Shown in pieces: positions 6,469 to 64,000 of a stretch of DNA of 64,000 nt (position 1 is its first letter; each line of letters opens with the position of its first letter). Under the pieces are notes generated by a model. The model was not told the DNA's origin. It made no database searches and saw nothing but the letters and a program-made list of their open reading frames with translations. Where the stretch lies: the NCBI GenBank assembly GCA_000002435.2, contig CM018790.1; one strand, 5' to 3'. The DNA comes from Giardia intestinalis. Its lineage: Eukaryota. Both the position numbers and the translations under genes were made by a program.

Positions 6469-7077
6469 TACTGCTCGTTAGATATTGGGTCTGGCTTGTA
6501 AGGGAGCAGGTGCCACCAATATTCCAAGTACGAGTATCAAATAATTAATTATAATTTTTACTCAACCAAAACACATCCAGGCTTCACAACTTAGCAATTG
6601 TGCACAGCAGCAATGCATCCCAGCTATGGATGAGAGCACTCTTCAATGTCAATACATAATTGAGAAAGCTCCTGAGAGGATGCCGGAACATAGGTCCATC
6701 ACTAGAGTGCACTAGTAAGGAAAAGGATTGTCAGCTATAGTACTCTATAGCTTTGCAAGTGTTCTTCTATGAAAGCAATAGACGAGGTAGAATAAGCAAT
6801 AAGTAGCTGGATATATCTCCTGGTAGCAATCACATTAGTACCTAGCAACTAATAATAAGTCCTTGTCTAACTTAGATAAATCTTGCTTTATGTACAGTTA
6901 TACAAACAATCACTATCTACATTAACAAGTGGCGTGTGATCACATTGACAACATGAAGACTATATAGCGGCAATAGACCATTACACGCAGTACTATTGCT
7001 TAGCTATTACGCCTACCAGTTCTTTGGATTGTCAATCCAGCCTTCAAATAGTTTCAAAATCTGTTATTTCAAAAATA

Positions 7078-10000
7078 ATGTACCCAGTGCTCCGGCTGTA
7101 TCTCAAGACGGCCAGAGCCCACCTTTGTCTCTACATCTGCATGATTGTCATGCCGGTCGTTGTGATGGCCGCTGTCGCGCTCTTCTTCTCGTTCGAGGAT
7201 AGACTGCAAAGCCCTAGCAGCGGCCTAGGCGAAGGGACTCTCCCGCGCCTCCCGTTGTGCAGGGACCTGCCTGGTTGCACGAGCCAGACCGTGTACCTTG
7301 CATTCTCCCCCGACACGATCGAAGCGCGCCGGGTCGTTGACAGACTCGCCCAACAGAACGGATTAGAGTCGGAGCGGATTGTTGCCGTAAAAGACCGCGC
7401 AACGATGCAGAGGCTTGTGGCCGGGAAGAATCTCGGCCCGAGCTTTGTCGATGACGTGATTGCGGCCAACCTGGGAGAGACGGTGCGGGGGCACCTCCTA
7501 GGCGCCGATGGCTCCCTTGCTTCAATCCTCACCCCGCGGGAGGTCCTTGCAGACAGGGGCGTCGTTGCAGAGATGCTTGACACAGCGTATGGGCTTAATG
7601 ACAGAACCCTGGATGCGTTCGATGACGAGTGGGCCGCGAGCATGGGACCGGCCGACAGCGTCTTCCTCGCGCTCGACCTAAACATCTCAAACCGGGAAGC
7701 GTCAGACATCCCGCAGGCCGTCCAGTACTCGCTCTGGTACAGCCAGGAGATGATGACCTGGTACGCTGTCAAACACCCTAGTCCACGGACAAGGTCCTCA
7801 ACGCCTAACTCGTACGCCATGTCGTATGTGTGGAGCCCGGTGTCCTTCAGCATTTTCGAGGCGATTCACAACGCCCTGACGGAAACCTTTATTGGCAAAA
7901 CCATTTCGTACAGCCTGGGAGAGTATCCGTTGCAAGGCTCGACGACCACCCTTGCTGGGATGCAGGCGTACATGATTCTCCAGCTTTCTATCTTCCTCGA
8001 GTGCATCCTGACCCTCATCTTCGCAGCGCACTTTCGCGGGCCCTTTCAGACCACGCTCCGCCGATTGGGTGTCTCGGAGTTCTGCATGTACGGGTTCACG
8101 TTTGGCACACTTTTGATCGCCAACCTCTTGGCATACGGACTTCTCTTTGGTGCTGGCTCGCTCTTCAAGTTGTTTCCCTTCTCGAGCTACACTCCTTCTC
8201 TTAACGCCCTTGTCAGCATCACCTTCGCCCTCATCACCACCGCCTCCGTGCTGCTCCTGCACATGCTCTTCTACAACACGTCGGTGGCAATTGCCTTTGG
8301 GACGGTGGCCCTGATTCTGCTCGTGGCGTTCCCCTTCCTGATCCTCCTCGAGCAACCAGACTACCCCACGATCTGGACACAACTTGCTATTCCAACCTGG
8401 CTGACAAAGGTCTTCTACGTCCTGTTTCCTCCCCTGGGGCTCGTTGCCATCTGCGACATGATGATAACGTTGAGACCGGAGCGTATGCTGACTCTTCTTG
8501 TTGGACAGAGCGCCAGCACGTACGGCCTTGAGCTCCTGTTTAATGACATAGATGGATATCATTCAAAGCACTTTTCGTGTCTAGGTACAATATTTATTGG
8601 TGTATCTGAGTGTACTTTTCAGCTTCCTTACCTTGGATCTCTTGTCGTCACGTCCCTGGTTCAGAGCACCCTAGCTCTTCCGCTGTTAACTCTGGTTCTC
8701 CTCTTCTGCAAGCATGAGCCAGGCTCACAAGGACTTCCCCTCAGCTTCCTCTGCAGCCGCAAGTTCTACCGTACAAGGCGCCCCAAGGACAACCCGGAGT
8801 TCCCCTTTCTGTCTGTCTCAGGGCTTCGGAAGACATACCGTAAGGCAAAGAGATGCACGGTCGTCAAGGAGGAGGCGCTGTGCGGGCTGGACTTGCACCT
8901 TGAGCAGGGAGAGGTCACGGGCCTCGTCGCGACAAGCGGCGGGGGAAAGTCCACAGCCCTGGGGATCATGGCTGGCGAACTGGCGCCCTCCGGCGGGCAG
9001 TGCGCAGGGCTCGGGCACGATCTCCTCTGTCCGTACACCGCACGGTCCCTGCGGGGGTTCATCTCGCTCTGTCCCCAGGAATGGAACAACATCTGGATCA
9101 ACCTCACTGTCAGGGAGAACGTTCTTCTGTGCGCAGAGATCCGGGCCAGGGTCACGGGCCGCCTCGGCGAGCTCCAGCACAGAAGCGAGTCTCTCGACGG
9201 ATACGTCGACGAACTCCTGAAGCGCCTCGGGTTGCACGACCACGCGCACAAGCAGGCGTCTGCCCTGTCTGGGGGGATGCTTCGTCGCCTGGCCCTTGCA
9301 AACGCAACGGCGGGAGGTCCGCGGCTGATACTTCTCGACGAGATTACGGTGGGCGTGGACCCGATCCTGAAGCGCCAGATCTGGGCGTACGTTCGCGCAC
9401 TGGTCACAGAAGGCGCCGCAGCAGTCCTGTCCTCCCACGACGCCAACGAGATAGCAGAGCTAGCCACTCGCGTTGTCGTGCTCAAGGCCGGTCGGACGCA
9501 GGCCGATGCCCCTGTCGTGCAACTCCTTGAGGAGCATGGAGACTACGTGGTCTCAGTGACGTCGGAAAGCCGCGACGCCATTTCACGAGTAGCGCTGCTG
9601 CTCTCGACGGAGCTAGGGACTCTGCTCGGAGTTGGCGCTAAAGAGCTAGGTGTTACAATGGACCCACGGCGTGCCAGCATATCCATCCCTGCAGCACTAG
9701 TCCCAGATGCACATGCTCTGGCGGGTCTGATACAGCACTGCCGCGCCTTCGAGAAACGAGAGGGCGTCCAGGTTGCCGTCTCACGGGCCCGGCTGGAGGA
9801 TGTCTTCGAGCACCTGCTGGATGGCGAAGACGACGCGCAGCCGGAGCCTCTGCGCTCAGTAACTCTGGACGAGGACAGAAAGCCCTCCGTGACGCGCCAC
9901 CTGCTGCTCCTCTTCCTCTCCCTGGACCTTCAAGAGCACTGCAGAAGCTTTGTTTCCATACTTGCTGCACTGACCGCCCTGTTTGTGCTAATTTGGATGG

Positions 10001-13000
10001 GGGTCCATTATACTCTTACTAGCGTCAAAAGTGCTATTGAGTTGGTAGAGGCAGCGCAACTTAGCGAGTGGTCTCTGTCGTGCCTTGCTGACTGCATCAA
10101 CACCAATCCCGATGCAGACCCCTTGCTGACAGACGCCAATGTCACAACTGAAAACGTAAGCGAGTTTTTGAAGGCCAACCCAGGAGTCGATGCCCTTCAG
10201 GTCATGGAGCGCTGCCTGGTGAAGCGTCCTCGGCGACTCTTCGAGCCAATGCTTCAGTATCCAAATGGATTCTCCGCCTGTCTTAGCTACATGAATCGCT
10301 TGGGCCTCGACACATATCGCTACGATTACTTGACCGTTGGAGATCGTCAGACAGGATCCCTGGGAACCAACGAGACACAGTTCAGTTGGTACTACATTGG
10401 CGTAGTAGGTGACGCCTCGAAGGTCGAGACCTCAGACAGCGTATCATTGAGCCTGTCTCTGGACGACCCTCTTATAGCAAGCTCTCCAACGGGAGGGCTT
10501 GACTATTATGTCGCAAACGAGCCCCAGCAGATCTCTTTCTCTCCCCAGAACTTTGGGGATGTGTGGAGGAGGGGCGTGGAGGCAGGCCTCAGACACCCCT
10601 TGGACTCCGATGACCTGTTCTCGCTTGTGGCCCCCCGCATGACTGTACCTCAGTATCTTCGCAGTGACACATCTCCGCCCCCGAAGGATACAGAGAATCG
10701 CACACTTCTGCTTGAGGAGACAATTCTTCGCCAACCCACGGCAAGTGACTTCTTCGAGGGGATTACGTCCACAATTGGCAGTACATTTACCAAGCCAGAC
10801 TGCTTCGATTCACAGCCGGCTGTACAAGCACGTGTGGTTCGCAGGGTGTTCAGAAGCATCCCTGCGGTTATCTTTCAACCAGGCCAGCACGAGGCAGGCA
10901 GTGCGTTGCTTCTTAAGATGTATGCTATGCTTCCTCCTCTCGGGCCACAACGCAAGGCCTATCGTGATTGGGTCATTACCTTTACTCCATCGAAAGAGCG
11001 GGCCGATACGCCAGCATATACTTCGAAATATTTCATCCCTACTTTGTTTCAATATCTGTACAAATATCCTAACAATGCCATTGATATCACGAAAACCGAT
11101 CGTGTCAGATTCACATTCACGACGATTGGGGCGGATGCGATGGCCAAGATGACCGGCGCTCTCTTCCGTCAGCACCTCGTAGAGTCTCTTCGGGACACGC
11201 TCGGCGTAGAGGAGGCGTGGCGCCAAGGGACAGAATTCACCTATGACGGGTCCGTGATGAGTATCCCTAGGCGGTATCTGAACAGAGATCTCATATTCGA
11301 AACTCCGGGGGCAGCCCTGCAATCGATGGAGATAATGAGTGACTACTACTTAGTGTTCCTCTTATTGCTAGGAAGCGTTATCGTAGCCGGTCGCGCTGCC
11401 CGGGAATTTCAGCAGCGCACCGTGACCCTTCTTCACCTCCACGGGGCCTCTGAAATGCGCGTTGTCATGGTTCTTATCCTGTACTTCAGCATCTGGACCA
11501 TCATCCCCACAATACTGATTGCAGCGGCCTTGACAGCACTCTTTAAGGACGCCTTCTTCATCCACGGTCCTGCAGTGGCCGCTGTCGCATATACCTGCCT
11601 GGGAATGATAGCTCTTTCCAGCGTGTTCAATGCAGTCCTAGTGGCCGTGCTCCTTCGCTCTCAGCAGAACGCCATGCTGACCGTGGTTCTCCAGATCCTC
11701 GTCGCTGTCTTTGTCTCCGGCTCTCTCAGGGCCGAGGGAGCAGTGGCCGCCGTCCTGGGCCTTCTGGCTCCCGGCGCGGGGTACATGCCCGTGCTGCGAA
11801 ACGCCATAGGACTTAGCCGCATTAGCTGGGGGTCTCTTGCCCTCTCGTTTCTGATATCGCTGCTAGAGGTGCTTGCCTCGCTTGGCGTGCTGCTGCTCAG
11901 GAAGATTCGGGTCCGCCAGAGGATCAAAGACAGGACCCCTGACGGATCAGATTCAGAGGAGTCTGGACTGCTGAGCGGGCTATCAGAAACAACTTCCATG
12001 ACCAGCCTCAATTTGGAGAGGAAGGATGCACCTCCCGGACACCCTGACAACCACCTCAGCGTGCAGGGGATCTCGCACAGCTATCGCAAGGGCGTCCACG
12101 CGCTCGACAACGCCTCGTTTTCGGTGCCGGCGGGGAGCATCTTCGCCCTGCTCGGCGCCAACGGGGCCGGGAAGTCCACGATGATGCACGCCCTGACCGG
12201 AGTCCTGAGGCCGACTGCTGGAAGCGCTCTCTGCGTGCGTAACGAGGCCGACAGCAGATGGGTTGACCTCTTCCGGCGGGTCCACCACAGCCGGTACATC
12301 ACAGTTGTTCCCCAGCACGACCTTTACTGGCCGCAGCTCACGGTCCGCGACCACGTGAAGATCATCCGAGGGCTCACGCCCAGGGCACTTCGGCCAAACA
12401 TCAAGTCGACGGACCACGTGCTCCGCCTGGTGGGGCTGGCCGAGCACGCCAACAAGAGGGCCGGTGCGCTCTCGGGCGGGATGCGGCGGCGCCTCACGCT
12501 CGCGATGGTCCTAGTTTCGTCTCCCTCGCTCATCTGCCTCGACGAGGCGACGACGAGCTTCTCGGGGCGCCTGAGGAAGCGGGTCTGGGACGCCATTCTT
12601 GCCAGCAAGGGCGTCAACAAGACGCTCATCGTCACGAGCCACGACATGGCCGAGGTGGAGGCCCTGGCAGACACATGCTGCGTCCTCCGGAAGGGCCGGG
12701 TCATCGCCAGCGGGTCTGTCGACGATCTCTCTGCACAGAGCCGCGTGGCCTACACGCTCACCGTCGCGTGCGGATCATTAGAGGCGTTCGACGCCTACCT
12801 TGCTGGCCCCCACAAGTGCGCCTGTGAACTCTCTGGTGGGCTGCTTGCAAACGCCGAAGTCAACAGCGTTGCACGGCTAGTCAAGTACAGGATCCCTCAA
12901 GGTGTGGACCTCGAGACGGCCATCTCCTCTCTGTCCTCGGCCGGGTGCCTAACGCACGCCTGGGCGCTGACGCATGCACGCCTGGAGGAGGCGTTCGTTG

Positions 13001-13017
13001 ATCTAACAGGGTGCTAA
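7078..13017 (+). CDS. ABC transporter, ABCA-like full transporter (TMD-NBD-TMD-NBD)
   Basis: The track ORF starts at 7024, but that codon is TTG. The first ATG in frame is 7078 (MYPVLRL...), preceded by 'tttcaaaaataATG'. NBD1 has Walker A 'GLVATSGGGKST', signature 'LSGGMLRRLALA' and Walker B 'ILLDEITVGVDP'. NBD2 has 'GANGAGKSTMMHAL', 'LSGGMRRRLTLA' and 'ICLDEATTS'. Two multi-helix hydrophobic blocks precede each NBD, with a large loop after the first TM helix as in ABCA proteins. Confidence 0.85.
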   Translation: MYPVLRLYLKTARAHLCLYICMIVMPVVVMAAVALFFSFEDRLQSPSSGLGEGTLPRLPLCRDLPGCTSQTVYLAFSPDTIEARRVVDRLAQQNGLESERIVAVKDRATMQRLVAGKNLGPSFVDDVIAANLGETVRGHLLGADGSLASILTPREVLADRGVVAEMLDTAYGLNDRTLDAFDDEWAASMGPADSVFLALDLNISNREASDIPQAVQYSLWYSQEMMTWYAVKHPSPRTRSSTPNSYAMSYVWSPVSFSIFEAIHNALTETFIGKTISYSLGEYPLQGSTTTLAGMQAYMILQLSIFLECILTLIFAAHFRGPFQTTLRRLGVSEFCMYGFTFGTLLIANLLAYGLLFGAGSLFKLFPFSSYTPSLNALVSITFALITTASVLLLHMLFYNTSVAIAFGTVALILLVAFPFLILLEQPDYPTIWTQLAIPTWLTKVFYVLFPPLGLVAICDMMITLRPERMLTLLVGQSASTYGLELLFNDIDGYHSKHFSCLGTIFIGVSECTFQLPYLGSLVVTSLVQSTLALPLLTLVLLFCKHEPGSQGLPLSFLCSRKFYRTRRPKDNPEFPFLSVSGLRKTYRKAKRCTVVKEEALCGLDLHLEQGEVTGLVATSGGGKSTALGIMAGELAPSGGQCAGLGHDLLCPYTARSLRGFISLCPQEWNNIWINLTVRENVLLCAEIRARVTGRLGELQHRSESLDGYVDELLKRLGLHDHAHKQASALSGGMLRRLALANATAGGPRLILLDEITVGVDPILKRQIWAYVRALVTEGAAAVLSSHDANEIAELATRVVVLKAGRTQADAPVVQLLEEHGDYVVSVTSESRDAISRVALLLSTELGTLLGVGAKELGVTMDPRRASISIPAALVPDAHALAGLIQHCRAFEKREGVQVAVSRARLEDVFEHLLDGEDDAQPEPLRSVTLDEDRKPSVTRHLLLLFLSLDLQEHCRSFVSILAALTALFVLIWMGVHYTLTSVKSAIELVEAAQLSEWSLSCLADCINTNPDADPLLTDANVTTENVSEFLKANPGVDALQVMERCLVKRPRRLFEPMLQYPNGFSACLSYMNRLGLDTYRYDYLTVGDRQTGSLGTNETQFSWYYIGVVGDASKVETSDSVSLSLSLDDPLIASSPTGGLDYYVANEPQQISFSPQNFGDVWRRGVEAGLRHPLDSDDLFSLVAPRMTVPQYLRSDTSPPPKDTENRTLLLEETILRQPTASDFFEGITSTIGSTFTKPDCFDSQPAVQARVVRRVFRSIPAVIFQPGQHEAGSALLLKMYAMLPPLGPQRKAYRDWVITFTPSKERADTPAYTSKYFIPTLFQYLYKYPNNAIDITKTDRVRFTFTTIGADAMAKMTGALFRQHLVESLRDTLGVEEAWRQGTEFTYDGSVMSIPRRYLNRDLIFETPGAALQSMEIMSDYYLVFLLLLGSVIVAGRAAREFQQRTVTLLHLHGASEMRVVMVLILYFSIWTIIPTILIAAALTALFKDAFFIHGPAVAAVAYTCLGMIALSSVFNAVLVAVLLRSQQNAMLTVVLQILVAVFVSGSLRAEGAVAAVLGLLAPGAGYMPVLRNAIGLSRISWGSLALSFLISLLEVLASLGVLLLRKIRVRQRIKDRTPDGSDSEESGLLSGLSETTSMTSLNLERKDAPPGHPDNHLSVQGISHSYRKGVHALDNASFSVPAGSIFALLGANGAGKSTMMHALTGVLRPTAGSALCVRNEADSRWVDLFRRVHHSRYITVVPQHDLYWPQLTVRDHVKIIRGLTPRALRPNIKSTDHVLRLVGLAEHANKRAGALSGGMRRRLTLAMVLVSSPSLICLDEATTSFSGRLRKRVWDAILASKGVNKTLIVTSHDMAEVEALADTCCVLRKGRVIASGSVDDLSAQSRVAYTLTVACGSLEAFDAYLAGPHKCACELSGGLLANAEVNSVARLVKYRIPQGVDLETAISSLSSAGCLTHAWALTHARLEEAFVDLTGC

Positions 13018-52945: not shown

Positions 52946-52951
52946 TCCATA

Positions 52952-55900
52952 ATGTGTTCTGTCAGGATGTCTCCTCTCCCGTTTATCGTCCTTTGCACGC
53001 GAGAGCCCCTCTTCATCGTCTTTTCGCTCACCGGAAACATGGCCATCTCCGATCCCTTCCGGCTCCAGTCCCCTGGGACGTGTCTGTTCTGGCACGAAGC
53101 ACGGTCCCGGCTCTACATAGGCCACGCATCTGGCAATGTTAGCATTTACGCGCTGGCCTACGAAAGGGACCCAGACGCCCCACAGTTTGCTGACGGGATA
53201 AACCTTTCAGAAGACCCCAGCAACACGGGGAACTCCAGGCAGCCCTCTCTGGCCAGCACCACCGTAGATGCTGCCATGCAGATCCTCGGAAAGAGCCGCT
53301 CCTTCGACTCGCTGACGCGGGAGGAGCTCTTGAAGGTGTACCCGGAGCTCCGGTCGTCGTTGATAGACGTCTCCAAGAGCACCGCGGAGGCGCTGCAGAG
53401 GTCCTCCCAGGAGAAGGAGCGGCTCCGAGGGAAGTCCAAGCAGCTCATCGCCATGGCCTCCGAAGACCTTGAGGTCGTGAGCCTCATCACATCGCAGATC
53501 TTTGACGCCGGGCAGAGCACGCTTCTCAGCCACGGGATCAAGGAGACGCAGCTCATCGCCGACGACCCCCTGGCCTTTGTCAAGGCGACCGTGGCCCCAG
53601 ACCCCGTCGCCGCGGCAACGCACGAGAAGCGCCACGGGGGCGTGCATCTGACGATCCGTGCCGAGTTCGTCACCACCAAGTATGTGGTCGCGGGGAGCGT
53701 CAGGTGCATGGACGCCGGGCGCGGCCAGTGGGAGGAGGCCATGGCAGACGACCTGTTTCGACTGGCCGTCGTGGGCTCCGATGCCGCGCTCGTCATTCTG
53801 GACGAGGACCTGGGGGTCGTCTGCACGTTCTCGGACTTGCACCCGGAGGGGATCATGCGGTGCTACGTCGTCATCGATCACATCACAACCATTGGCTTCA
53901 GCAACGTCTACCAGATTGGCCCGGAGGCGGTCCGCTCCTGCCACTTGGGGATGGCCGTGACAAAGGAGGAGCTCGAGGACGACCCTGCCCGGGTGGACGG
54001 CGAGGACGATAGGCGCGGGAAGAGGAGGCGCGAGGCCGTGCAGGTCTCTGACAAGAGGCTCGTGAAGGCCAACCTCGTGAAGTCCGCGCACCTGATCACC
54101 CTTGTCCAGCCGCCCAGGCCGGGCAAGCCTATTCTGGCGTCGTTCGCTTTCGGGAACGTTATTGGCGTTATTGACCACGACAACGTGGTGACCCTCATCC
54201 ATGCACTGACGGGCGCGCACATCACGCGGATCGACATCGCCATCAACCTGCACGGAGTCAAGGTCGGCACCGGGGTCTATAGCCGCAAGCACGACTTCGG
54301 CTACATCCCCTTCGGGCGCCGGCTGTTCGTCCTCAAGGTGGTTGCCAACGAGGAGCTGGCCAAGGAGCAGGTGGTCTGGGACTTTGAGGACGCGAAGCGC
54401 GAGGAGGAGCAGCGGGCACTGGGCAAGCGCAGGCCGAAGGAGCTGATCAAGCACGCGCCCGAGCATCTTCCCCTGGGGTCTATCAGCAAGGAGTGCGCCG
54501 GCGTTGTCGTCAACCAGCGCATGAACGAGCTTGGCGCCGTCACAGGCCCTGGGGAAGTGACGATCTTTTCGCTCCTTACCGGCCGGCCGTCCAGGATCTA
54601 CGACATTGCAAGGATCTCCAAGACGCTTCTGGAGGGCCGAGACGGCACAGGCAGCGGTGGCGATGACCCACAGGATTCCGTACTGGGTTCGGAGTATGCA
54701 AGCATCGAGACGTGCGACCTCTCGAAATTCTACGCAGAGGGCCAGAGCGAGGTGACGGAGGCCGATCTCCACTTTTCCACTCCAGACGACGAAGCCCGAT
54801 ACAGGACGCTCCACAAGCCACCGCAGATCCTCAGCCAGATCCCCAGCGCCCCCGACGCCCCCCAGTCTCTGCTCGACGCCCTCGGGCGGCGGATTCTGTC
54901 CCTCGCCGTCGACAGCAAGGGACGCGTTCTTTACGTCATAGGAACCCACGGTGCAGTGACACTTTACTGGAAGACCGGCTCTCTCTTCGACATATCCAAC
55001 GTTGGGATTACCGGCCGGAGGACATGCGAAGACGACATTGACATCGTCGACAACCCGTTTGATGGCCAAAGACTGGGCGACGCACAGAGGGAGCCTTCTG
55101 CAGGGGCCGACTCGCACATGTCGTCCGGAGCTTCTTCGTACAGCCTGGGGCTCAATCTGTCTCAGATCATCGTCAAGGCCAACAACGCAGCCTTTGTGAG
55201 ACAGCTGCTTTCCGACAAGTCGATAATGCGCGCGCAAATCTTAGCCACCGACAGAGCGCGCGGCCTTCTCTTCCTCTGCGACAACCTCAACCCGCAAATT
55301 GTGCGCGCCATAGACATGAAGCCGAGCCACGAGTACGTGAACAGGATAGGGCTGTCGAGGCAGCTGACAACCTTCGACATCTTTTTTGCAGGAGGAGCAG
55401 ACCACTTTGCAAGGGCACGGCAGCAGCTCGCGGCGTTCTTTTCGTCGAAGCCCGTATTTGTAGGCGCAGACGACCTCTCTTCAAAGCCGGAGGTTGTAAG
55501 ACGCTTTTGCCCCGAGTTCCTGTGGGCCCGAGATGTCTCTTCAGCAGGACAGCCGAATCAGGCGCCGTCTCCGATCCAGAAACTGCTCTGCGACGTTCTC
55601 TACACCGGGCATGCAAAGAAGGCTCGAAGTGACTCGTACGTGACGTGCATTGATGCCTCGGAGGAGCTGTCTCTGCTGGCCATAGGCACGTCTGACGGCC
55701 GGATTCTCGTCCACGACACGATGTCTGTCAAGCTGCTGCAGCAGGGGGTGATCCAGCCCCCGACAATCCCGTCTGTTGGCTCCCCCATAACGGCCCTCTG
55801 CTTCCTGGGACAGTGGCCCCTTCTGTTTTCTGCGTCGGCCTCTGGCGCCTGCTACATCCACGCGGTCCGCTCGCTGTACCCGAACTTTTCGCTCGTCTGC

Positions 55901-57901
55901 GCGTTTTACCACGGAAGCTACCATCCCCTGGGCTATCCACTGAATGCAGACTTTCAGGCCGGCTGGGTCCAGACAGCTGGATTCTTGAAGCACGCCCTTC
56001 TGCCCCTCTCTGATTTCAACTCAGACGTCCAACTGTATGGGAGTAGATACGAGGACGTGGTTCGCTACCTGATAGAAAACTTTTCTCCAGATCTCCTCCA
56101 CACAAAGTACTGCCCCGAACGCAAGGGCCCTGCGCCCGGGGACGAGGCTCTGCGGTCGATTGACGGGGAGTTCCGTGCCAATCGTCTGCTTTCCACGAAA
56201 ACGGCCTACGGGGCGCGAGTCGGAGACCTCCAGGCGTCGACTGCAACGCCCTCCATGGACGCCTCGATGACAACCGATAGGGAGGGAGAGGCCGCTTCCG
56301 GAATGATCCAGCCTCCATCGATGTTTGAGAGGCATACTGCTTCCAATCGCTATGCGTACATCATGGTCCAAGAATCCACAGCGGCTACTGAAGAAGGCCA
56401 ACCTCTGTGCCATCTCCAGCAGGAGACCGTCGGTGTACAGGACGACTTGGAAGAAAGGTCAGAGCGTGCGCACACCAGAATGCCGGGTCCGTCTTACCAA
56501 GAGATTGTCTCTGCAACAATGGCACTCCTTCGCCGATACGTCCCCATTTCCCAGAACTTCCGAGGCCTTCAAGCCCGTCGGCGCAGAACGCTTATGAAGA
56601 TTCGGGCTGCTGCTCAGGTGATAATGCTTGTTTCTTTCTACTTCACGCGCTTCTTAGCTGTTCCTCGGAGGGTCTACGTTGACTTCCTTCCTGTTCCGCT
56701 GGGCACCAGTCAGCCAAGGCAGGCCGCCTCTCGCCGCAAAGTGCCTCAGGGAGCGGTGAAGCTCTCCGACAAGTCCAGCAAGGTGATCGAGGACTTTTCT
56801 AAGTCGCGCTTTAAGACGTCCGGCGTTGACGTGGAGAGCCCGGCGGCTGCGCAATACGCAGACGCCCATGCGTCTCTTTATGGCACCATGATGGGGTCCT
56901 CTGTGACGCGGCCCGGGATGGAGGACGTAGAAGCGGAGGAAAACGGCATTCTCTACCAGTACGTCTTCAGGGACAGAACCAAGGTGAGAGTGCCAGTCCG
57001 GAAGGAGTCCGTTCTTGCTCTCTCCGCTCGCACCATGCCGACAGCTGTCTGCTTTGTGGACGGCGCCCACTCTATCCTGGTCGGGGACGACGCAGGCTTT
57101 GTGACCCTCTACAAGATTCAGAATCTGATAGCTGCTCTGGGGATCACACGCAGTCTCGACACGCAGCAGCTCCCTAAGGGTCTTCTTCATGCCCCGAGCT
57201 CTGGGAAGACGTCGCCAGTCGTTCCGTCTTCGTATCTCCGGGTACGGTACGTCCACCGTGCTCACGCCGCCCCCATTAGCCTGCTTTCTCCAGCTGGTTC
57301 CAACAGCCAGGCATACATTTCGATAGGCGGGGACAAACGAGTAGCGCTGTGGGGCTTGGACGGGGCCCAGCTCCTCGGCATTGTTCAGAGAGTCAATCTT
57401 GACCCGCCTCCGAAGGGATGGGACTCTCTTTTCGGCGTGCCTCTTACCGCACGCTCCGGGCAAAAGTCCTCAGAGAGTGGACTGGCAGATACAGCAAGGC
57501 TGTCCATCGAAGACCTCGAAGATGTGCCCAGTCAAGTCTTCCAGGACCCCCCTCCACCTATGCGTCTTGAGGCCCCGCCTGCGTGCGCATACCCGTGGAC
57601 ATATGCGCCGGAGAGCTCTGCAGGGGATCGCGTAGACACAGTCATTCTTCAAAGCATGCAGCAGACAGGGACGCTGGGTAACAGTGTGGAAGAGGCGGAC
57701 CTGCTCGGTGTGACCCGCCAGCTTCTGGCATCGCGGCGGCCAGTCATTGCGCCTACGTCCCAGGGCGATCCTGGAACCCTCCTCAAAGCCACAGGCCTCA
57801 CGGGTCGCCTGCTTGAGCGGAAGGGGGACTCGTGGACGGTTCGGGCCATGAAGCTTCGCGCGGCGCAGCAGCCCCTGGGATGGAGTGCAGGACCCCAATG
57901 A
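52952..57901 (+). CDS. Large hypothetical protein (1649 aa) with probable WD40-like repeats; GC-rich
   Basis: ATG ORF. WD-like strands end in W/Y/H-D/K: 'SGNVSIYAL', 'HGAVTLYWKTGSLFD', 'SDGRILVHDTMS', 'DAGFVTLYKIQN', 'GGDKRVALWGLDGA'. Dense antisense ORFs reflect GC-rich codon usage, not genes. Confidence 0.5.
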   Translation: MCSVRMSPLPFIVLCTREPLFIVFSLTGNMAISDPFRLQSPGTCLFWHEARSRLYIGHASGNVSIYALAYERDPDAPQFADGINLSEDPSNTGNSRQPSLASTTVDAAMQILGKSRSFDSLTREELLKVYPELRSSLIDVSKSTAEALQRSSQEKERLRGKSKQLIAMASEDLEVVSLITSQIFDAGQSTLLSHGIKETQLIADDPLAFVKATVAPDPVAAATHEKRHGGVHLTIRAEFVTTKYVVAGSVRCMDAGRGQWEEAMADDLFRLAVVGSDAALVILDEDLGVVCTFSDLHPEGIMRCYVVIDHITTIGFSNVYQIGPEAVRSCHLGMAVTKEELEDDPARVDGEDDRRGKRRREAVQVSDKRLVKANLVKSAHLITLVQPPRPGKPILASFAFGNVIGVIDHDNVVTLIHALTGAHITRIDIAINLHGVKVGTGVYSRKHDFGYIPFGRRLFVLKVVANEELAKEQVVWDFEDAKREEEQRALGKRRPKELIKHAPEHLPLGSISKECAGVVVNQRMNELGAVTGPGEVTIFSLLTGRPSRIYDIARISKTLLEGRDGTGSGGDDPQDSVLGSEYASIETCDLSKFYAEGQSEVTEADLHFSTPDDEARYRTLHKPPQILSQIPSAPDAPQSLLDALGRRILSLAVDSKGRVLYVIGTHGAVTLYWKTGSLFDISNVGITGRRTCEDDIDIVDNPFDGQRLGDAQREPSAGADSHMSSGASSYSLGLNLSQIIVKANNAAFVRQLLSDKSIMRAQILATDRARGLLFLCDNLNPQIVRAIDMKPSHEYVNRIGLSRQLTTFDIFFAGGADHFARARQQLAAFFSSKPVFVGADDLSSKPEVVRRFCPEFLWARDVSSAGQPNQAPSPIQKLLCDVLYTGHAKKARSDSYVTCIDASEELSLLAIGTSDGRILVHDTMSVKLLQQGVIQPPTIPSVGSPITALCFLGQWPLLFSASASGACYIHAVRSLYPNFSLVCAFYHGSYHPLGYPLNADFQAGWVQTAGFLKHALLPLSDFNSDVQLYGSRYEDVVRYLIENFSPDLLHTKYCPERKGPAPGDEALRSIDGEFRANRLLSTKTAYGARVGDLQASTATPSMDASMTTDREGEAASGMIQPPSMFERHTASNRYAYIMVQESTAATEEGQPLCHLQQETVGVQDDLEERSERAHTRMPGPSYQEIVSATMALLRRYVPISQNFRGLQARRRRTLMKIRAAAQVIMLVSFYFTRFLAVPRRVYVDFLPVPLGTSQPRQAASRRKVPQGAVKLSDKSSKVIEDFSKSRFKTSGVDVESPAAAQYADAHASLYGTMMGSSVTRPGMEDVEAEENGILYQYVFRDRTKVRVPVRKESVLALSARTMPTAVCFVDGAHSILVGDDAGFVTLYKIQNLIAALGITRSLDTQQLPKGLLHAPSSGKTSPVVPSSYLRVRYVHRAHAAPISLLSPAGSNSQAYISIGGDKRVALWGLDGAQLLGIVQRVNLDPPPKGWDSLFGVPLTARSGQKSSESGLADTARLSIEDLEDVPSQVFQDPPPPMRLEAPPACAYPWTYAPESSAGDRVDTVILQSMQQTGTLGNSVEEADLLGVTRQLLASRRPVIAPTSQGDPGTLLKATGLTGRLLERKGDSWTVRAMKLRAAQQPLGWSAGPQ

Positions 57902-58576
57902 AATAACTGGGCAAGAGATAGAGGGACACTGGGTGCTGAGCGCGGGACAGATCTGAGCATCTGCTTGGAGTAATTCGCTCAACCTAACGGCTGCTCTAGC
58001 GCTGTGCCGCTGACTTTTTGTAGGTGTGGCTCGAGCATCATTATAGACCGCTTGGTGGTCAACTGTGCCCGACAACGAGGAATGGACAAGAGGCCACGAA
58101 CCGAGCAGTTCGGCCCATCCCTGATCGAGGAACGCCCAGGAGCTCTGCGGCCGTCAATGTTGCTGGCTCGGAAACGAATGCCCAACGAAGCTCGTCGGGT
58201 GACGCTCGAGAGCCGGCCACTCGCTGCCTTCCAAGCGACGCTTCCAGCCAACCTCTGTGGTCCTTGTCAAGCAGATGAGACCAATTGAGGAGAGAGCGGC
58301 CGATCAAGGTCAGCGTGACTCTAGCGCGGCGGAAAGGATGGAGACCAAGCGTTCTGACACGCACGTATCGATTGGACAGAAACAACCCAGAGATTCCAGC
58401 AGCATGCTGACGCCAGTGTGGAGCATTGATGAAGAACCCCGGCCCTGAAGGGCGACACCCCTGTCTCTGAAGAGGCAGCCATGCTTGTGTGCGCCTCGAC
58501 TACACCCGCAGAGGGCCCTATAACATAGCCTTGCAAGTACTAGTGGGCAGAGTGAACGATTTTTGAAACAAACTTC

Positions 58577-58825
58577 ATGGCCGACGGCGATGACCACACA
58601 GCCAGCTCCCCAGCAGTAGCCCCCGCCATCCCACAATTCACTCGTAAGAAGCTCCACAGGCGGTTGGATGACGTGCTAGGAAGAGATGCCACAGATACAG
58701 TCTACTCTCTCAAGGGTTATCCAGACCTCGCTGTGAAGGAGATCCCTCTCGACGGCCTGGACAAGGGTAACATGGACGCCATCAGAATAAGATTGACCGG
58801 GGTGAGGCTGTCGCCTGCCACCTGA
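58577..58825 (+). pseudogene. Fragment resembling the N-terminus of a NEK-type (pseudo)kinase; possible 5' remnant of a gene disrupted by the downstream retroelement
   Basis: 'TVYSLKGYPDLAVKEIPLDGLDKGNMDAIRIRLTGV' parallels NEK subdomain I-III, (G)xV..V.....LVxKEI.L.GL.KKE.E. Only 82 aa, then a stop and a GC-rich non-kinase sequence. Confidence 0.3.
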
Positions 58826-59379
58826 CTGGTCCCCCATGCGAGCCACCGCCGCCCTGGGCACGCTTCTCGCATGCACGGCTGGGACCAGACGTCTGAGAGC
58901 CGAATCTCCTCGGATCCCTGCAGAAGAAGCCCGGACGAGGGGCTGAGGGCCCCGGTACTCAGCCCAGCAAGCAGCAGACCCGCGACTGCCCGATGAGGGA
59001 ACCACCGAGGAGGGCTCGCGGGGGCCCGAAGAAGAGAGTCTAGAGAGCAGCCGATAGAGTGAGCAGGGGGCCCGCACCTCCCTGTCATGGAGAGCGGCGC
59101 ATGGTGGCAGGCCCCAGTGGCCATTCCTCTAGGAGACCACCTGGCCCCACAGGATCGATTACTAACTACACGAACTGGCTCAAGAACGCCGAGGTTCACT
59201 CAAGGGGCTGCACCCTTGGGGACCTCCTACGCGATCCACAGCACAAGGAGTCGCCACACCTCTTTCACCTCACCAGAGGGCCTCGAGCAGCACGTCTCGG
59301 GAACTCTCTCCCGTCCGGGCTCCTTCTGCAGCCTTGCGACAGACAGACGGTGCCAGCTCACGCGGGCCCTCGCCGTTGC

Positions 59380-59600
59380 CTGCCGTGATGCCCCGGACCA
59401 GTGGGTGCCGCTGGGGCCTGCCTGGAAGTATGATCCAAAGATCTCACAGGTAAGCCTCGCTCAGTCCCTGGCCAGCCCGGAGGCGGGGGCTGGCCACGGG
59501 TCGCAGTGATAGCCACAGTGGTGATAGGGAAGAGCTCCCTCCGTTTGTGGATCTGGGGCCTGTGCGTTCCTCGGCTGTTCTGCGGATGTGCACAGCTGGA
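59380..59600 (-). repeat. Inverted copy (about 70-75% identity, with indels) of the retroelement 3' tail found at 62270-62465
   Basis: The reverse complement of 59380-59600 aligns with 62270-62465. Shared blocks are 'ccgcagaaca[g/c]ccgaggaacgca', 'ct[c]ttccct..caccactgtgg', 'ttacc[t/a]gt[g/a]agatct[t/c]tgga' and 'caggcaggccccagcggcac'. The translations also match: minus ORF 59358-60083 ends '...HPQNSRGT...LPVRSLDHTSRQAPAAP', and plus ORF 62270-62497 reads '...HPQNTRGT...LPVRSLDSARRQAPAAH'. Confidence 0.6.
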
Positions 59601-60249
59601 CTTGAGGCGAAGGAGAGCCCGCGAGGACCAGATCCGTATTACGAACGCAAGATCATACCTTTGGGCCCCAGAGAGCAAGCCGTGAGTCTCTACTCGGAGG
59701 ACCACTTCGAAGACGCTTGCCCTCTCGGCAGGACACACACGCTGGCTCTGTGGCCTGCCGTGCGAGAGCGCCAAGCAACCAACCGAGCACCTGAGAGAAG
59801 CAAACGATGACAGACACAGAGTGCTGGGCGACGACAAGCTGATCCTTCCGGCCCACATACCGAACCAGACAGCTGCCATGCTCATCCACCAGGGTGCGCG
59901 CATGATCGCGAGCATCGAGCAGGCCGGGACTGGGGTCGCGCTCCCCGCAATCAGGGGCCTAGACGCCCTGGTGGGAAGCTGCCAGAGGGCCCCTCTGCCA
60001 GACAACACCACGGAGCAGTCCCAGAGCAAGGCAGACCCAGACCCCGAGAAGGCGAGGCGCCGGATAGCAAACAGGGTGAACAACGCGCTGAGCTTTAATA
60101 GCTGCCAGGTCCTCTGTTCCTTGACACACCCACGATAGACAAGCCAGAGAAGGCCAAGGCCCCCTCAGCGCGCTACACCCGTGCGTCCCCCCGAAGGCTG
60201 CGTTGGCCTTGACTACCCTCCATCGATGAACTCGACAGGGCTGGAGTGG

Positions 60250-61260
60250 CAACCGAGGAGGAAATGAGGAAGGCCCTGTTTGGAACTCTCAACAAGAAGG
60301 CCTCGGGCGTGTCTGGTCTCGGGCCGGTCCAGCTCAGGCGATGAAGCAGAACGACAGCTTTGTGAAATACCTCACGCAGGCGTACAACGAGCTGACCACT
60401 CACCCCGAGGCGATACCCGAGGTGACGACCATGTTCGAGTTCCGGGCGATCCTCATCCCGAAGGAGTCCGACGGATACCCCCGATCGCGATAGGCGGACG
60501 GTCACGAACACCTTCCACCGCGTCCTGCTGAAGGGCTGATCAGGCATGCCAACTACCTCTCATGCGAGCAGATCGCCTTCAAGCAGAACGCATACGCGGT
60601 AGGCGTGAGGAGGGCCCACGAGCTCATCAGCGGGCGGGGATGCACGCCGTCTCCCTCGACACAAAGAACGCCCTCAACTCGCTCCCGAGGGCAGAGGTCG
60701 TCAGAGCCCTGAACGAGGCGGGCGTCCCGAAGGTCCTGGTCGACTACATCAGGAACTTCCTCGACCTGAGGCACAGCAAGGACGTGAAGTGCGAGGTCTG
60801 CGGCGTCCCCCAGGGCGACCCGCTCAGCACGTTCCTCTTCTGCATGGCCACCGAGCGCCTCCTGAGACGCCTCGAGGAGAGGGGCATCGCCTTCCTTGCC
60901 TATGCAGACGACATCGTGGGGTTCCACGACGAAGGGTACCCAGCAGGTGTGATAACACAGCAGACCATGGACCTGACGATCAGGAGCGACAAATGCAAGT
61001 CCACCATGGCGGGCGAGGAGGTGACCTTCCTCAACCACCCGGCGTCCCCCACTCCTGCTAGTCTCGCCCCAAAGGCCATCGCAGGTGCCGAGACTGCCTT
61101 GAAGAAGATCGAGAATGCCCCAATAACCATCCACCAGAAGCTCATCCTGGTGTCACTCTGTGTGGTCCCGATGGTGAGCTACGCCCCCCTGGTCGAAGTA
61201 ACATCGGACAAGGCGGACTACGAGGAGTTCGACAGACGTCGCACAAGGCATCAGCACTAA
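60250..61260 (+). pseudogene. Reverse-transcriptase domain of the retroelement, interrupted by at least 2 frameshifts
   Basis: See RT motifs 1, 2, A, B and C above. Motifs 1-2 and A-C lie in different reading frames. Confidence 0.65.
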
Positions 61261-62269
61261 CCAACAGAAGCTGCGATCGCCTGGTCGACTTCCTAGCGTA
61301 CCCGAAGGAGAAGGGCGGCCTGGACCTGCTCATGCCTGGATTCTACCACGACGAGCTGCGGAGGGTATGGGCCTCCTTGGACGTCAACAAGGGGGCCAGA
61401 GACCCGGTGGAGCTGTCGGTGGGCGGCCAGGCACTGCAGGGGAAGGGGCCTACTTCAACCGCCTCCTCACGCGCACACACCAGCTTCCGGACAGAGCGGC
61501 GACGTACTGTCTGCAGATGTGCGGCGTGCTGACCGAGGAGGAAAGGGCCCTGAAGGAGAAGGGCGGCTCGATCATGGCGCAGAAAGAGGCACCTGCCCGG
61601 GCTGCCACGAGGCACGACATGATCGTCGCGTGCCTGTACCTCCGCGTCTCGGGGAAGCTCAGCGCAGAGCTGGAAGTCAAGACCCACAGCCACCTCAGCG
61701 ACCAGAACCAGAAGCCCGACATCTGGCTCGTCGACAAGTGCAAGGCAGTGGACGTGGGTGTCATCCAGCCCCGCCAGATGGATACCACAGCGAGAAGGCC
61801 AAGAAGTACAGGGACGGGACGCTCCCGATCATCTACGGGACGGACGGATCCCTCCACCCCAGTCCAAGGGGCACCTCAAGGAGCTCCACGTGGACCTCTG
61901 TCCGGGCTGCCTTCGCCATCGCCCACATGGCTGCAGAGGCGAACGAGCACCTGACGGGGCTGATCAGACGGGCCGGGCCGAAAGCCTGGCCACCCAGAGC
62001 GACCGTCTCCTGTCATCCTACTTCTGACAACCGAATGAGTCCATCCCCGGGACCTGTCGACAACGACCGAGAAGGGGCGCAAGACTGGACACACAACCGA
62101 GTTGAATCCCAACCAGAAGAGAAAGCCCCGCTAGCTGCTGCTGATATACATGGACAGTATTGAGAATGACAACAAAGACCAGAGCTTCACCAACCGTAAA
62201 GGGAGAACAAGGAGAGGCACCCTAGTAGACCAGCGAGCCTGCAGGACGGCGTGATCTCCAAAAGGATCT

Positions 62270-62465
62270 ATGTGCACTCTTAGACCGAGCACACACCCGC
62301 AGAACACCCGAGGAACGCAGATAGCTCCTCCCTTCCACCACTGTGGTCTTTATATTGATACACGACCAACCCTCGTCTCCGGACATCACCAAAAATTGAG
62401 CGGGAATTTACCAGTAAGATCTCTGGACAGCGCCCGCAGGCAGGCCCCAGCGGCACACCACACAC
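62270..62465 (+). repeat. 3'-terminal segment of the retroelement; partner of the inverted copy at 59380-59600
   Basis: As above. Confidence 0.6.
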
Positions 62466-64000
62466 TCAGTATACCTCTTTGGCAAAAGTATTCTTAATGA
62501 TATCATTGGTGTTAAGACCGATTGCTCCGGAAATTCCTTGCTGCACAAGGCCGCTCTGGAGTGCAGTGGCCTTGAAGCTAAAGCGCTTAGCTCGTCACTA
62601 GCCTACCTTTGCCGATTACGCAATACTTCTGGAGAGACAGCCTTACAATTGGCGATAAAACATGGAAATTTGGAGCTCGCCAAACTTCTGATTGATGAGG
62701 AAGCAGGTAGCTATTCTGACACAAAAGAATCTGCAGTGGAGCTGGCCCTTCTTCGGGGTTCATGCGAAGTAGCCAGGCTATTAATTCCATTTGAAGGGAA
62801 GATACTTACTGAGCGGGGGTATACGCAGCTGATGTTAGCGGCTTCGTTTGGTGAGAGACGACTCGTTGAGAAGTACATCCAACGACAAGCAAAGAGGCAG
62901 GCAAAGAATGGGGTCACTGCGATGCATTTGGCCGTTATATCTGCAATCTCGCTTCATAAGTCTATCAAGCTTCTGCTGCAAGAAAGAGATCGCTTGGCAA
63001 CTGACAGCGGCCACCTTATAGTAGAGGCAGAAGTTCCGCTGACCCACAGCTCTGTGACACCACGAAACACACGATCTCCACGGTCTATTAGTATCCTAAC
63101 CAAGTCTTGCGGTAGGGGTGACTTGTTTGCGCAGACAGCTGAAAAGGAATCAGCCTACTCTAGGCCACGTGTCACTTCGTCTAGACGCCCAATAACATCG
63201 GTACGATATCCAAGACAGACGCCGGCTCTATCTGCTAGTACACGTGTAGGAACACCAAAAAGCAGCTTCAGCTCACGAGGAGGCCAGCAAATATCTCCTA
63301 GCATTACCGTACCATCGATGCTATCCTCCTCTCCAAGAAAGAGGAGCGGAAGATGCGCGGCTTCGCGGTCTGGAGGCTCTAAAACATCTCCCATGGCGCG
63401 ACCGCGCACAACCCAAATCACAGCCCAAAAGCTTCCTGCTGAAGTTACTAAGCACCGGGCCCAGAGCACGTACGGAACCCAGCTTGACGGGAGCATAAAG
63501 GTACCAGTGCTTCAGCTTGATAACCTGAGCGGAAAGCATGTGTCATTTCCAGATACTCTCAGGATAAAGGACGATGCCAGCGTTGTAGAGTGTAGAATTA
63601 GAAAGCTCAGATCTCTGTTTCAAGCCTTCGTCGAGATTATCCTGCTCCTTATACCACTAGAAAAACAGATCTCCCAAAGGAATGGCCTCACGGTGCTCAT
63701 GATAGCTGCGAAGGCTGATGTTGTAGAACTAGTTAGACTGCTTGTCAATGACGAGAAGTTGATGGTAGATGCACGCGGAGAGACTGCCTTGATGATAGCA
63801 GTTAGGAACAATGCAGCAGCATCTGTCAAAGGGCTGCTTAGCCACGAGGCAACCCGTGCATCTGCCAATCGTGAACGCTATACCGCATTGCACCTAGCAG
63901 TGCAAACGAATAACAGCATTCTTGTTGAGCAGCTAGCAACTCTAGAGAATAATATTCCACAGGCATGCTACACGTTAAAAGACTTTCCTAACAGCAGGAA
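62418..64000 (+). CDS. Ankyrin-repeat protein ('protein 21.1'-like), partial: no in-frame ATG before the first ankyrin repeat, and the ORF runs off the right edge
   Basis: I translated this frame by hand from the stop at 62415-17 to 64000 without meeting a stop. Ankyrin motifs include 'GNSLLHKAALECSG', 'GETALQLAIKHGNLELAKLLIDEE', 'GYTQLMLAASFGERRLVEKYI', 'GVTAMHLAVISAI', 'GLTVLMIAAKADVVELVRLLVNDE', 'GETALMIAVRNNAAASVKGLLSHEA' and 'RYTALHLAVQTNNSILVEQL'. A Ser/Arg/Pro-rich linker is in the middle. The ankyrin-like sequence begins at about 62484, immediately after the retroelement tail, and the first in-frame Met is only at about 62831. Confidence 0.55.

Follow-up and report, generated by a model that had tools for sequence, protein, structure and literature searches.

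The window analyzed here, a 64,000-nt stretch of the Giardia intestinalis WB genome, contains near its right end (59401-62461, plus strand) a broken copy of a non-LTR retrotransposon, an element lacking long terminal repeats (LTRs). Positions are those of the window unless another locus is named. Very probably this is a dead copy of GilD, which we take to be the same family as Genie 2, and it closes a duplicated block that was most probably copied by recombination between GilD elements; taken jointly, these statements give the best explanation of the locus. The element itself is already known and is already annotated in WB as reverse transcriptase/endonuclease. GilD was described by Arkhipova and Morrison (2001) and Genie 2 by Burke, Malik, Rich and Eickbush (2002); GilM and GilT belong to the Genie 1 lineage.

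Giardia carries two telomeric families and one dead family of such elements (PMC10999387), namely GilM and GilT (telomeric) and GilD (dead); the title of Arkhipova and Morrison (2001), as it is quoted in PMC5537684, reports this too. GilD copies are broken by microhomology-mediated deletions and adjoin VSP genes (PMC2861651). In WB, remnants of reverse transcriptase (RT) sequence lie between pairs of VSP genes, and 6.9% of the genome is duplicated (PMC7000408). R2, R4 and NeSL are the elements with which the ancient GENIE clade, also endonuclease-bearing, has been grouped (PMC2790886).

Organization of the element

The features of the copy are as follows (all on the plus strand).

59401-62461, +: whole degenerate non-LTR retrotransposon copy of GilD/Genie 2 type, 3061 bp, homologous to four copies from isolate DH and one metagenomic copy
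59401-59590, +: 5′ arm of the terminal inverted repeat, the reverse complement of 62289-62461 (70.5% identical with gaps)
59689-60225, +: N-terminal part of the open reading frame (ORF), mostly in frame 1, with no recognized domain; collinear with the long N-terminal frame of the metagenomic copy
60226-61239, +: RT domain in six frame-shifted pieces (Pfam RVT_1)
60443-60463, +: RAILIPK, in frame 2
60652-60681, +: SLDTKNALNS (motif A)
60802-60828, +: GVPQGDPLS (motif B)
60901-60912, +: YADD (motif C)
61260-61590, +: thumb/linker between RT and CCHC, in frames 0 then 2; aligns with diplomonad relatives
61591-61608, +: TCPGCH, the surviving C-x2-C half of the CCHC zinc knuckle, in frame 1
61607-61863, +: remnant of the restriction-like PD-(D/E)xK endonuclease, retaining all of the H, D, D, K and P columns of alignment A2 (see below)
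61607-61627, +: TRHDMIV, in frame 2, with RHD at 61610-61618
61712-61726, +: KPDIW, with PD at 61715-61720
61745-61762, +: AVDVGV (contains VD), followed by a frameshift
61792-61809, +: EKAKKY (K..KY), in frame 1
61863-62027, +: C-terminal end of the ORF, split into three more frame pieces that finish with ...LLSSYF and a stop codon
62028-62461, +: 3′ untranslated region (UTR), including the 3′ inverted-repeat arm 62289-62461

Coding pieces were placed by three-frame translation and by tblastn with fragments of the family. No long ORF runs on the plus strand in 59360-62480. Twelve coding pieces spanning 60226-62024 were found, in frames 1, 0, 2, 0, 2, 1, 0, 2, 1, 0, 1 and 0, and the initial annotation, which had described coding parts scattered over three frames, was therefore correct on this point. 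It had also recognized the RT motifs, of which A, B and C (YADD) were located. The longest unbroken RT piece is the ORF at 60562-61260, which includes motifs A, B and C and the string FLAYADDIV; RVT_1 matches this ORF with E = 4e-16 and the frame-stitched translation with E = 6e-17. This ORF is identical to XP_001703964.1 (“Reverse transcriptase/endonuclease”), and a second ORF of the element is identical to the WB entry XP_001705872.1. Searches of Pfam with the other small ORFs of the element gave no match. The thumb/linker keeps the conserved NYGP and GGL..PG blocks and matches the R2 thumb region weakly. Of the CCHC and PD-(D/E)xK module said to lie downstream of the RT, the endonuclease motifs are present, but only the C..C half of the knuckle is left and the H..C half is gone. 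In the N-terminal part, a non-canonical C-x3-C...H...H stretch occurs at 59734-59790.

Apart from short Giardia duodenalis proteins (73-97% identity), most of them annotated as reverse transcriptase/endonuclease, a protein search with the element returned nothing. An exhaustive HMMER search, for which the query was P0013, the most intact C-terminal fragment, gave only 103 representatives among 1.84 billion. The long named matches belong to Spironucleus salmonicida, Hexamita inflata and Giardia assemblage B, and RVT_1 was detected in eight of ten long matches scanned, mostly directly upstream of the matched region. The C-terminal region of the element was aligned with its diplomonad relatives to give profile A2, in which the motifs C-x2-C...H...C, RH(D/N), PD, xVD, EK..K(Y/H) and P(I/V)(V/I) are found and the H, D, D, K and P columns are invariant. 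Because a single-sequence search of the PDB gave only weak R2 matches (E 0.02-0.09) below a group II intron RT as the top match, a profile was needed. Profile A2 matched the R2 proteins 9nl2, 9nl3, 9dou and 8gh6 with E values from 8.5e-12 to 6.8e-8; the match spans CCHC-RH-PD-D-K..KY and is weaker in the thumb. These are the motifs that biochemical work has assigned to the R2 endonuclease (PMC4838377). The domain order that had been claimed, RT followed by a C-terminal restriction-like endonuclease, is thus real at the family level. The corrected translation resembles non-LTR RT/endonuclease proteins, both by RVT_1 and by the profile match to R2, and therefore the retrotransposon interpretation stands.

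In comparison with R2 (R2Bm and R2Tg; structures 8gh6, 8ibw, 9dou, 9nl2 and 9nl3), the element has the same RT, CCHC and PD-(D/E)xK endonuclease, with RH, PD, D and K..KY in the same order and spacing, and presumably the same target-primed reverse transcription. R2 differs in having an N-terminal zinc-finger/Myb domain, of which none was detected in the element, and a specificity for 28S rDNA that the element lacks. Note that the N-terminal zinc finger/Myb domain defines R2 proper and not the wider group with restriction-like endonucleases. The protein of the element would comprise about 800 residues as opposed to 1100-1400 in R2, the element has terminal inverted repeats, and identity to R2 is at the profile level only. 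Rfam, including the R2 and ribozyme families, gave no credible match in 58400-62700. The closest intact proteins found are those of other diplomonads (S. salmonicida KAH0575584.1, H. inflata CAL5981149.1 and relatives), with 24-31% identity across thumb, CCHC and endonuclease and with all catalytic columns conserved. These proteins come from other genera and are longer, and some carry N-terminal C2H2 fingers.

Sister copies were taken from DH (assemblage A2) at loci L001, L002 and L003, from the DH block loci L004, L009 and L011, and from a metagenomic contig, L012 (ENA ERZ28627677, scaffold_2536, 2870 bp). The element is 87-93% identical to the four DH copies and the metagenomic copy, from the inverted repeat to 62459-62461. 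With the inverted repeat and the four other copies, the limits first proposed (59360 and 62480) were corrected to 59401 and 62461. Across five copies, the inverted-repeat arms measure 165-202 bp with 64-95% complementarity: 202 bp at 94.6% in L001, ∼179 bp at 91.7% in L002 and ∼172 bp at 87.4% in L003. Burke et al. (2002) reportedly gave up to 172 bp for the inverted repeats of Genie 2. The 3′ end ...GCACACCAC (62461 in the window) is common to all copies. In L001 (4544-4571 and 7647-7674) and L002 (7652-7684), 28-33 extra terminal nucleotides (CGGAAGCAACCGGTGGGTGGAGTAAACG...) continue past the ...CACCAC end at which the window copy, L003 and L004 stop, and therefore two 3′-end variants of the family exist. 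These nucleotides lengthen the inverted repeat of L001 to 202 bp. At the 3′ end of the element there is no poly(A) tail, and direct terminal repeats (LTRs) are likewise absent. A perfect 17-bp direct repeat, TCTACAGTCAAACCATA, flanks L002 as a target-site duplication. The flanks of the five copies are mutually unrelated, so there is no target specificity, and VSP genes adjoin L003 and L004. One could guess that the inverted repeat serves as an RNA panhandle or as a device for second-strand priming.

Every feature of GilD/Genie 2 that was examined is present in the element, and features of GilM/GilT are not. The element and GilD/Genie 2 have in common the host, a length of about 3 kb and a single RT-CCHC-endonuclease ORF that is degenerate in every copy. 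They also agree in their terminal inverted repeats (165-202 bp), in scattered sites away from telomeres without target specificity, in deletions flanked by microhomology and in sister copies between or beside VSP genes; nothing in the window copy contradicts membership. The length of ∼3 kb, the degeneracy, the terminal inverted repeats of 165-200 bp and the interior position are all consistent with GilD (Genie 2), and together with the microhomology-flanked deletion and the VSP-adjacent sister copies they support the GilD-type assignment made earlier. The window copy differs from other GilD copies in that its 5′ repeat arm is unusually decayed (70%), the outer 28-33 nt of L001 and L002 are absent and no target-site duplication is present. 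It also sits among housekeeping genes and not beside a VSP gene as reported for GilD.

The interior position that had been proposed is borne out. Neither telomere repeats, (TAGGG)n, nor a second tandem copy of the element occurs in the window, and genes elsewhere in the window include those for dynein heavy chain, tyrosyl-tRNA synthetase and adenylate kinase. Nine ORFs of the window are identical to GL50803 proteins of WB. A contrast in GC content, about 60% in the element versus about 50% in neighboring genes, holds on the downstream side (0.614 versus 0.489 for the downstream ORF) but not upstream, where the genes have values of 0.605 and 0.578 (window mean 0.532).

The duplicated block

The element forms the right end of a larger duplicated segment, whose parts and right-hand neighbor are listed here.

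52947-62200 (right limit approximate), +: duplicated block of ∼9.3 kb, comprising a truncated paralogue, a kinase stub, a spacer and most of the element
58577-58825, +: NEK kinase stub, the first ∼76 codons (XP_001705874.1, “Protein kinase”); homology between loci ends at 58804
58805-59400, +: GC-rich spacer (0.63) of ∼600 bp, with relatives only in the sister blocks L004, L009 and L011
62418-64000 (context from 62462), +: ankyrin-repeat ORF, orthologue of Protein 21.1, running off the window (Pfam Ank_2, E 8e-31)

Homology to DH L004, L011 and L009 and to WB L007/L008 begins sharply at 52947, inside a gene. GL50803_113673 (1649 aa) is a 5′-truncated paralogue of the chromosome 5 gene GL50803_60028 (1906 aa), and an unrelated NEK kinase gene (XP_001705876.1; 51305-52945) ends with its stop codon 1 nt before the join. 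Over the coding part, the WB paralogues are 97.6-99.2% identical; the window gene and its DH orthologue are slightly less similar than that, and this suggests gene conversion. An intact NEK kinase/ankyrin gene comes next after the GL50803_60028 gene in P15 (assemblage E) and in the WB-type contig L007. In the window, homology to this locus continues from 52947 across the intergenic region and ends with the first ∼76 codons of the kinase (58577-58804); the stub has 55% identity to the first 76 residues encoded by the 860-aa NEK/ankyrin gene that is intact at the P15 position. The spacer was considered as the decayed remainder of the NEK kinase, and a relaxed tblastn search gave no significant match beyond codon 76; considered as a repeat, it had no match outside the sister blocks and none to the flanks of other GilD copies. 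In DH, L009 shows the orthologous arrangement, and at least two more such blocks exist (L004 and L011).

Homology between the window and L004 runs to the last base of the element, but beyond the junction in the 3′ UTR it is only at the family level. Sliding identity, shared indels and direct inspection place the last 250-300 bp of the window copy with L001 and those of L004 with L003 and L012, and they assign this end of the window copy to another GilD sub-lineage than its remainder. Because of these differing groupings in the last ∼300 bp, the specific relationship between the window and L004 ends inside the 3′ UTR. Indels are also common to the copies in a mosaic pattern. With the block junction placed inside the 3′ UTR of the element, the block most probably reached this site when two GilD copies at separate loci underwent homologous recombination or gene conversion. 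In the simplest account, the GilD carried by the block and one already resident here would have exchanged sequence by ectopic homologous recombination or long-tract conversion, and the left end would represent a non-homologous join at 52947.

Alternatively, a read-through or chimeric transcript that covered the block and the whole element (9.5 kb) could have been retrotransposed to this site (5′ transduction), in which case the GilD machinery would have duplicated host genes. This explanation was favored at first, because homology to L004 extends across the whole element up to its final base. The left end, an arbitrary point within the upstream gene as expected with 5′ truncation, and the presence of at least three such blocks in DH also fit it. 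It was dropped after the analysis of indel sharing and sub-lineages, and we now consider it improbable: the last ∼250-300 bp side with L001 while those of L004 side with L003/L012, so that the specific relationship ends inside the element, the mosaic sharing of indels suggests recombination, and a target-site duplication around the whole block was sought and none was found.

Lesions and past activity of the copy

The window copy is 93.2% identical to L012 in aligned bases, with 23 gap events of which 22 shift the frame, so the copy is inactive as had been proposed. Twenty-one of the gap events are deletions in the window copy, mostly of 1-4 bp. At 61604/61605, a deletion of 59 bp relative to L012 lies between CCAC repeats and removes ...TARTLDRDMNCPKAAWTRT, the H..C half of the knuckle; this loss is microhomology-mediated decay of the kind reported for GilD. 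At this spot, L004 has independently lost 40 bp flanked by GACC repeats. The ORF was not restored by a majority consensus of five copies, which was still frameshifted, and for this reason the near-intact L012 served as the guide instead. With only two frameshifts over ∼810 codons, L012 has decayed much less than every WB or DH copy examined; its CCHC is complete except for an arginine at the histidine position. When the indels of the window copy were corrected in this way, as the initial annotation had recommended, the reading frame was restored with no nonsense codon. The ratio of nonsynonymous to synonymous substitutions (dN/dS) relative to L012 is 0.33, with dS 0.116. Much of the divergence between copies therefore arose under selection on the ORF, and decay by indels came later.

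If the frameshifts were errors of sequencing or assembly, an intact and potentially active element could lie at this locus. Most of the indels are single-base deletions, a common type of long-read error, but the ORF fragments are identical to earlier Sanger-based WB proteins, and L004 in the independent DH assembly shares 14 of the 15 indels of the window copy between 59872 and 61448. The frameshifts are thus real; deletions of 59, 11 and 4 bp are also not error-like. The error reading is effectively refuted, and we give it very little weight.

A displaced fragment of the telomeric family GilM or GilT at an interior site is about as hard to credit. These families share the host, the domain order and the ancient endonuclease-bearing group with the element, and an 883-aa RT protein of Giardia assemblage B is a distant relative, but at only ∼30% identity and in the thumb region only. 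GilM and GilT are ∼5.5-6 kb, intact, arranged head to tail at chromosome ends and equipped with long 3′ UTRs (GilM measures 5474 bp and forms arrays at a chromosome end; PMC7000408), whereas the element is a complete, dispersed and dead unit of 3.06 kb. Its own inverted-repeat termini are shared by dispersed copies, and telomere repeats are absent. Least plausible of all is a domesticated host gene of retroelement origin, to which the nonsense-free corrected frame and the dN/dS of 0.33 might point, because the actual coding strand has no ORF of more than 232 codons, a low dN/dS is expected if the lineages split while the family was still mobile, and the copy is absent at the orthologous position in P15.

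Several points weigh against a GilD copy placed here by recombination. The element was set against GilD/Genie 2 through diagnostic features and the annotation of identical ORFs, not through a named reference sequence. No VSP gene adjoins it; a six-frame scan of the window for CRGKA gave one match, on the minus strand at ∼18 kb, some 41 kb upstream. An N-terminal DNA-binding domain was not detected, and Pfam gave no domain in the N-terminal 180 residues of either the window copy or L012. A target-site duplication was sought around the window copy and not found, as was also the case at L001, L003 and L004. The recombination account is drawn from mosaic similarity among few copies, and DH contig L004 may be a chimeric assembly.

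An intact GilD would have encoded one protein of ∼800 residues, consisting of the N-terminal region, RT, thumb/linker, CCHC knuckle and R2-type endonuclease. Based on the homology to R2 and the 17-bp target-site duplication around L002, we infer that the element would have moved by target-primed reverse transcription, in which the endonuclease would nick target DNA and the RT would prime at the nick and copy the element RNA from its 3′ end. Some 20 small deletions (mostly 1-4 bp), which split the frame into at least 12 pieces, and the 59-bp deletion have ended production of the protein in this copy. The present copy is immobile and inert. L012 and the dN/dS of 0.33 hint that the GilD family was active more recently than “dead” implies, or is still active in some Giardia lineage.

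Consequences and neighboring sequences

The present significance of the copy is structural, as the right end of a duplicated block. We suggest tentatively, and at less than even likelihood, that GilD remnants still shape the assemblage A genome as substrates for recombination, and that this copy is a chimera of two lineages marking a block of ∼9.3 kb from the chromosome 5 locus. If so, the block event created GL50803_113673 and left the Protein 21.1 gene without a start, and a ∼54-kb difference in synteny from assemblage E falls at the same edge of the element. Dead GilD copies would then be indicated as patches of homology for ectopic duplication and synteny breaks in the repeat-poor Giardia genome, which bears on the rearrangement of multigene families (NEK kinases, Protein 21.1 and VSPs). 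The element itself adds little, due to the description of the family in 2001-2002 and the existing names of its ORFs in the WB annotation. Of modest value are the indication of such homology patches, the exact termini, frame map and list of lesions for this copy, and the direct, statistically supported homology of the GilD C terminus to structurally solved R2 endonucleases. Only the role in recombination and the near-intact metagenomic relative L012 go beyond the textbook picture.

The ankyrin-repeat ORF downstream is open for more than 520 codons from inside the element, with no start codon near its beginning. From 62685 onward it is 77% identical to P15 GLP15_2694, and it has AAG where P15 has ATG. 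In a protein search with this ORF, no WB or DH protein was returned; the ORF may be a gene that lacks annotation or a pseudogene that has lost its start.

In P15 (L010, 6844-11884), the homologue of window positions 7078-8628, a 518-aa gene, lies upstream of the Protein 21.1 orthologue at a distance of only 1.6 kb. In WB, 54 kb separate the 518-aa region from the Protein 21.1 ORF (62685-64000), and an in-frame fusion joins the 518-aa region to an ABC-transporter ORF (7024-13017, 1997 aa). These arrangements reflect either a synteny difference of ∼54 kb with GilD at one edge or an artefact of the P15 assembly.

On the minus strand, an ORF of 241 codons at 59358-60083 overlaps the 5′ part of the element. 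Nothing in the protein collection matches it exactly, and most likely this is a frame left open by chance in GC-rich sequence.

In L003 (DH contig AHGT01000066.1), stretches of 60-80 bp at 1959-2021 and 8021-8097 are 76% identical to part of the GilD inverted-repeat arm. Each is situated ∼70 bp 3′ of one of two convergent VSP genes. The GilD 3′ end at 62177-62427 also aligns with L003 7843-8097 at 67%. To judge from these alignments, the ends of the element and the 3′ flanks of VSP genes may share sequence.

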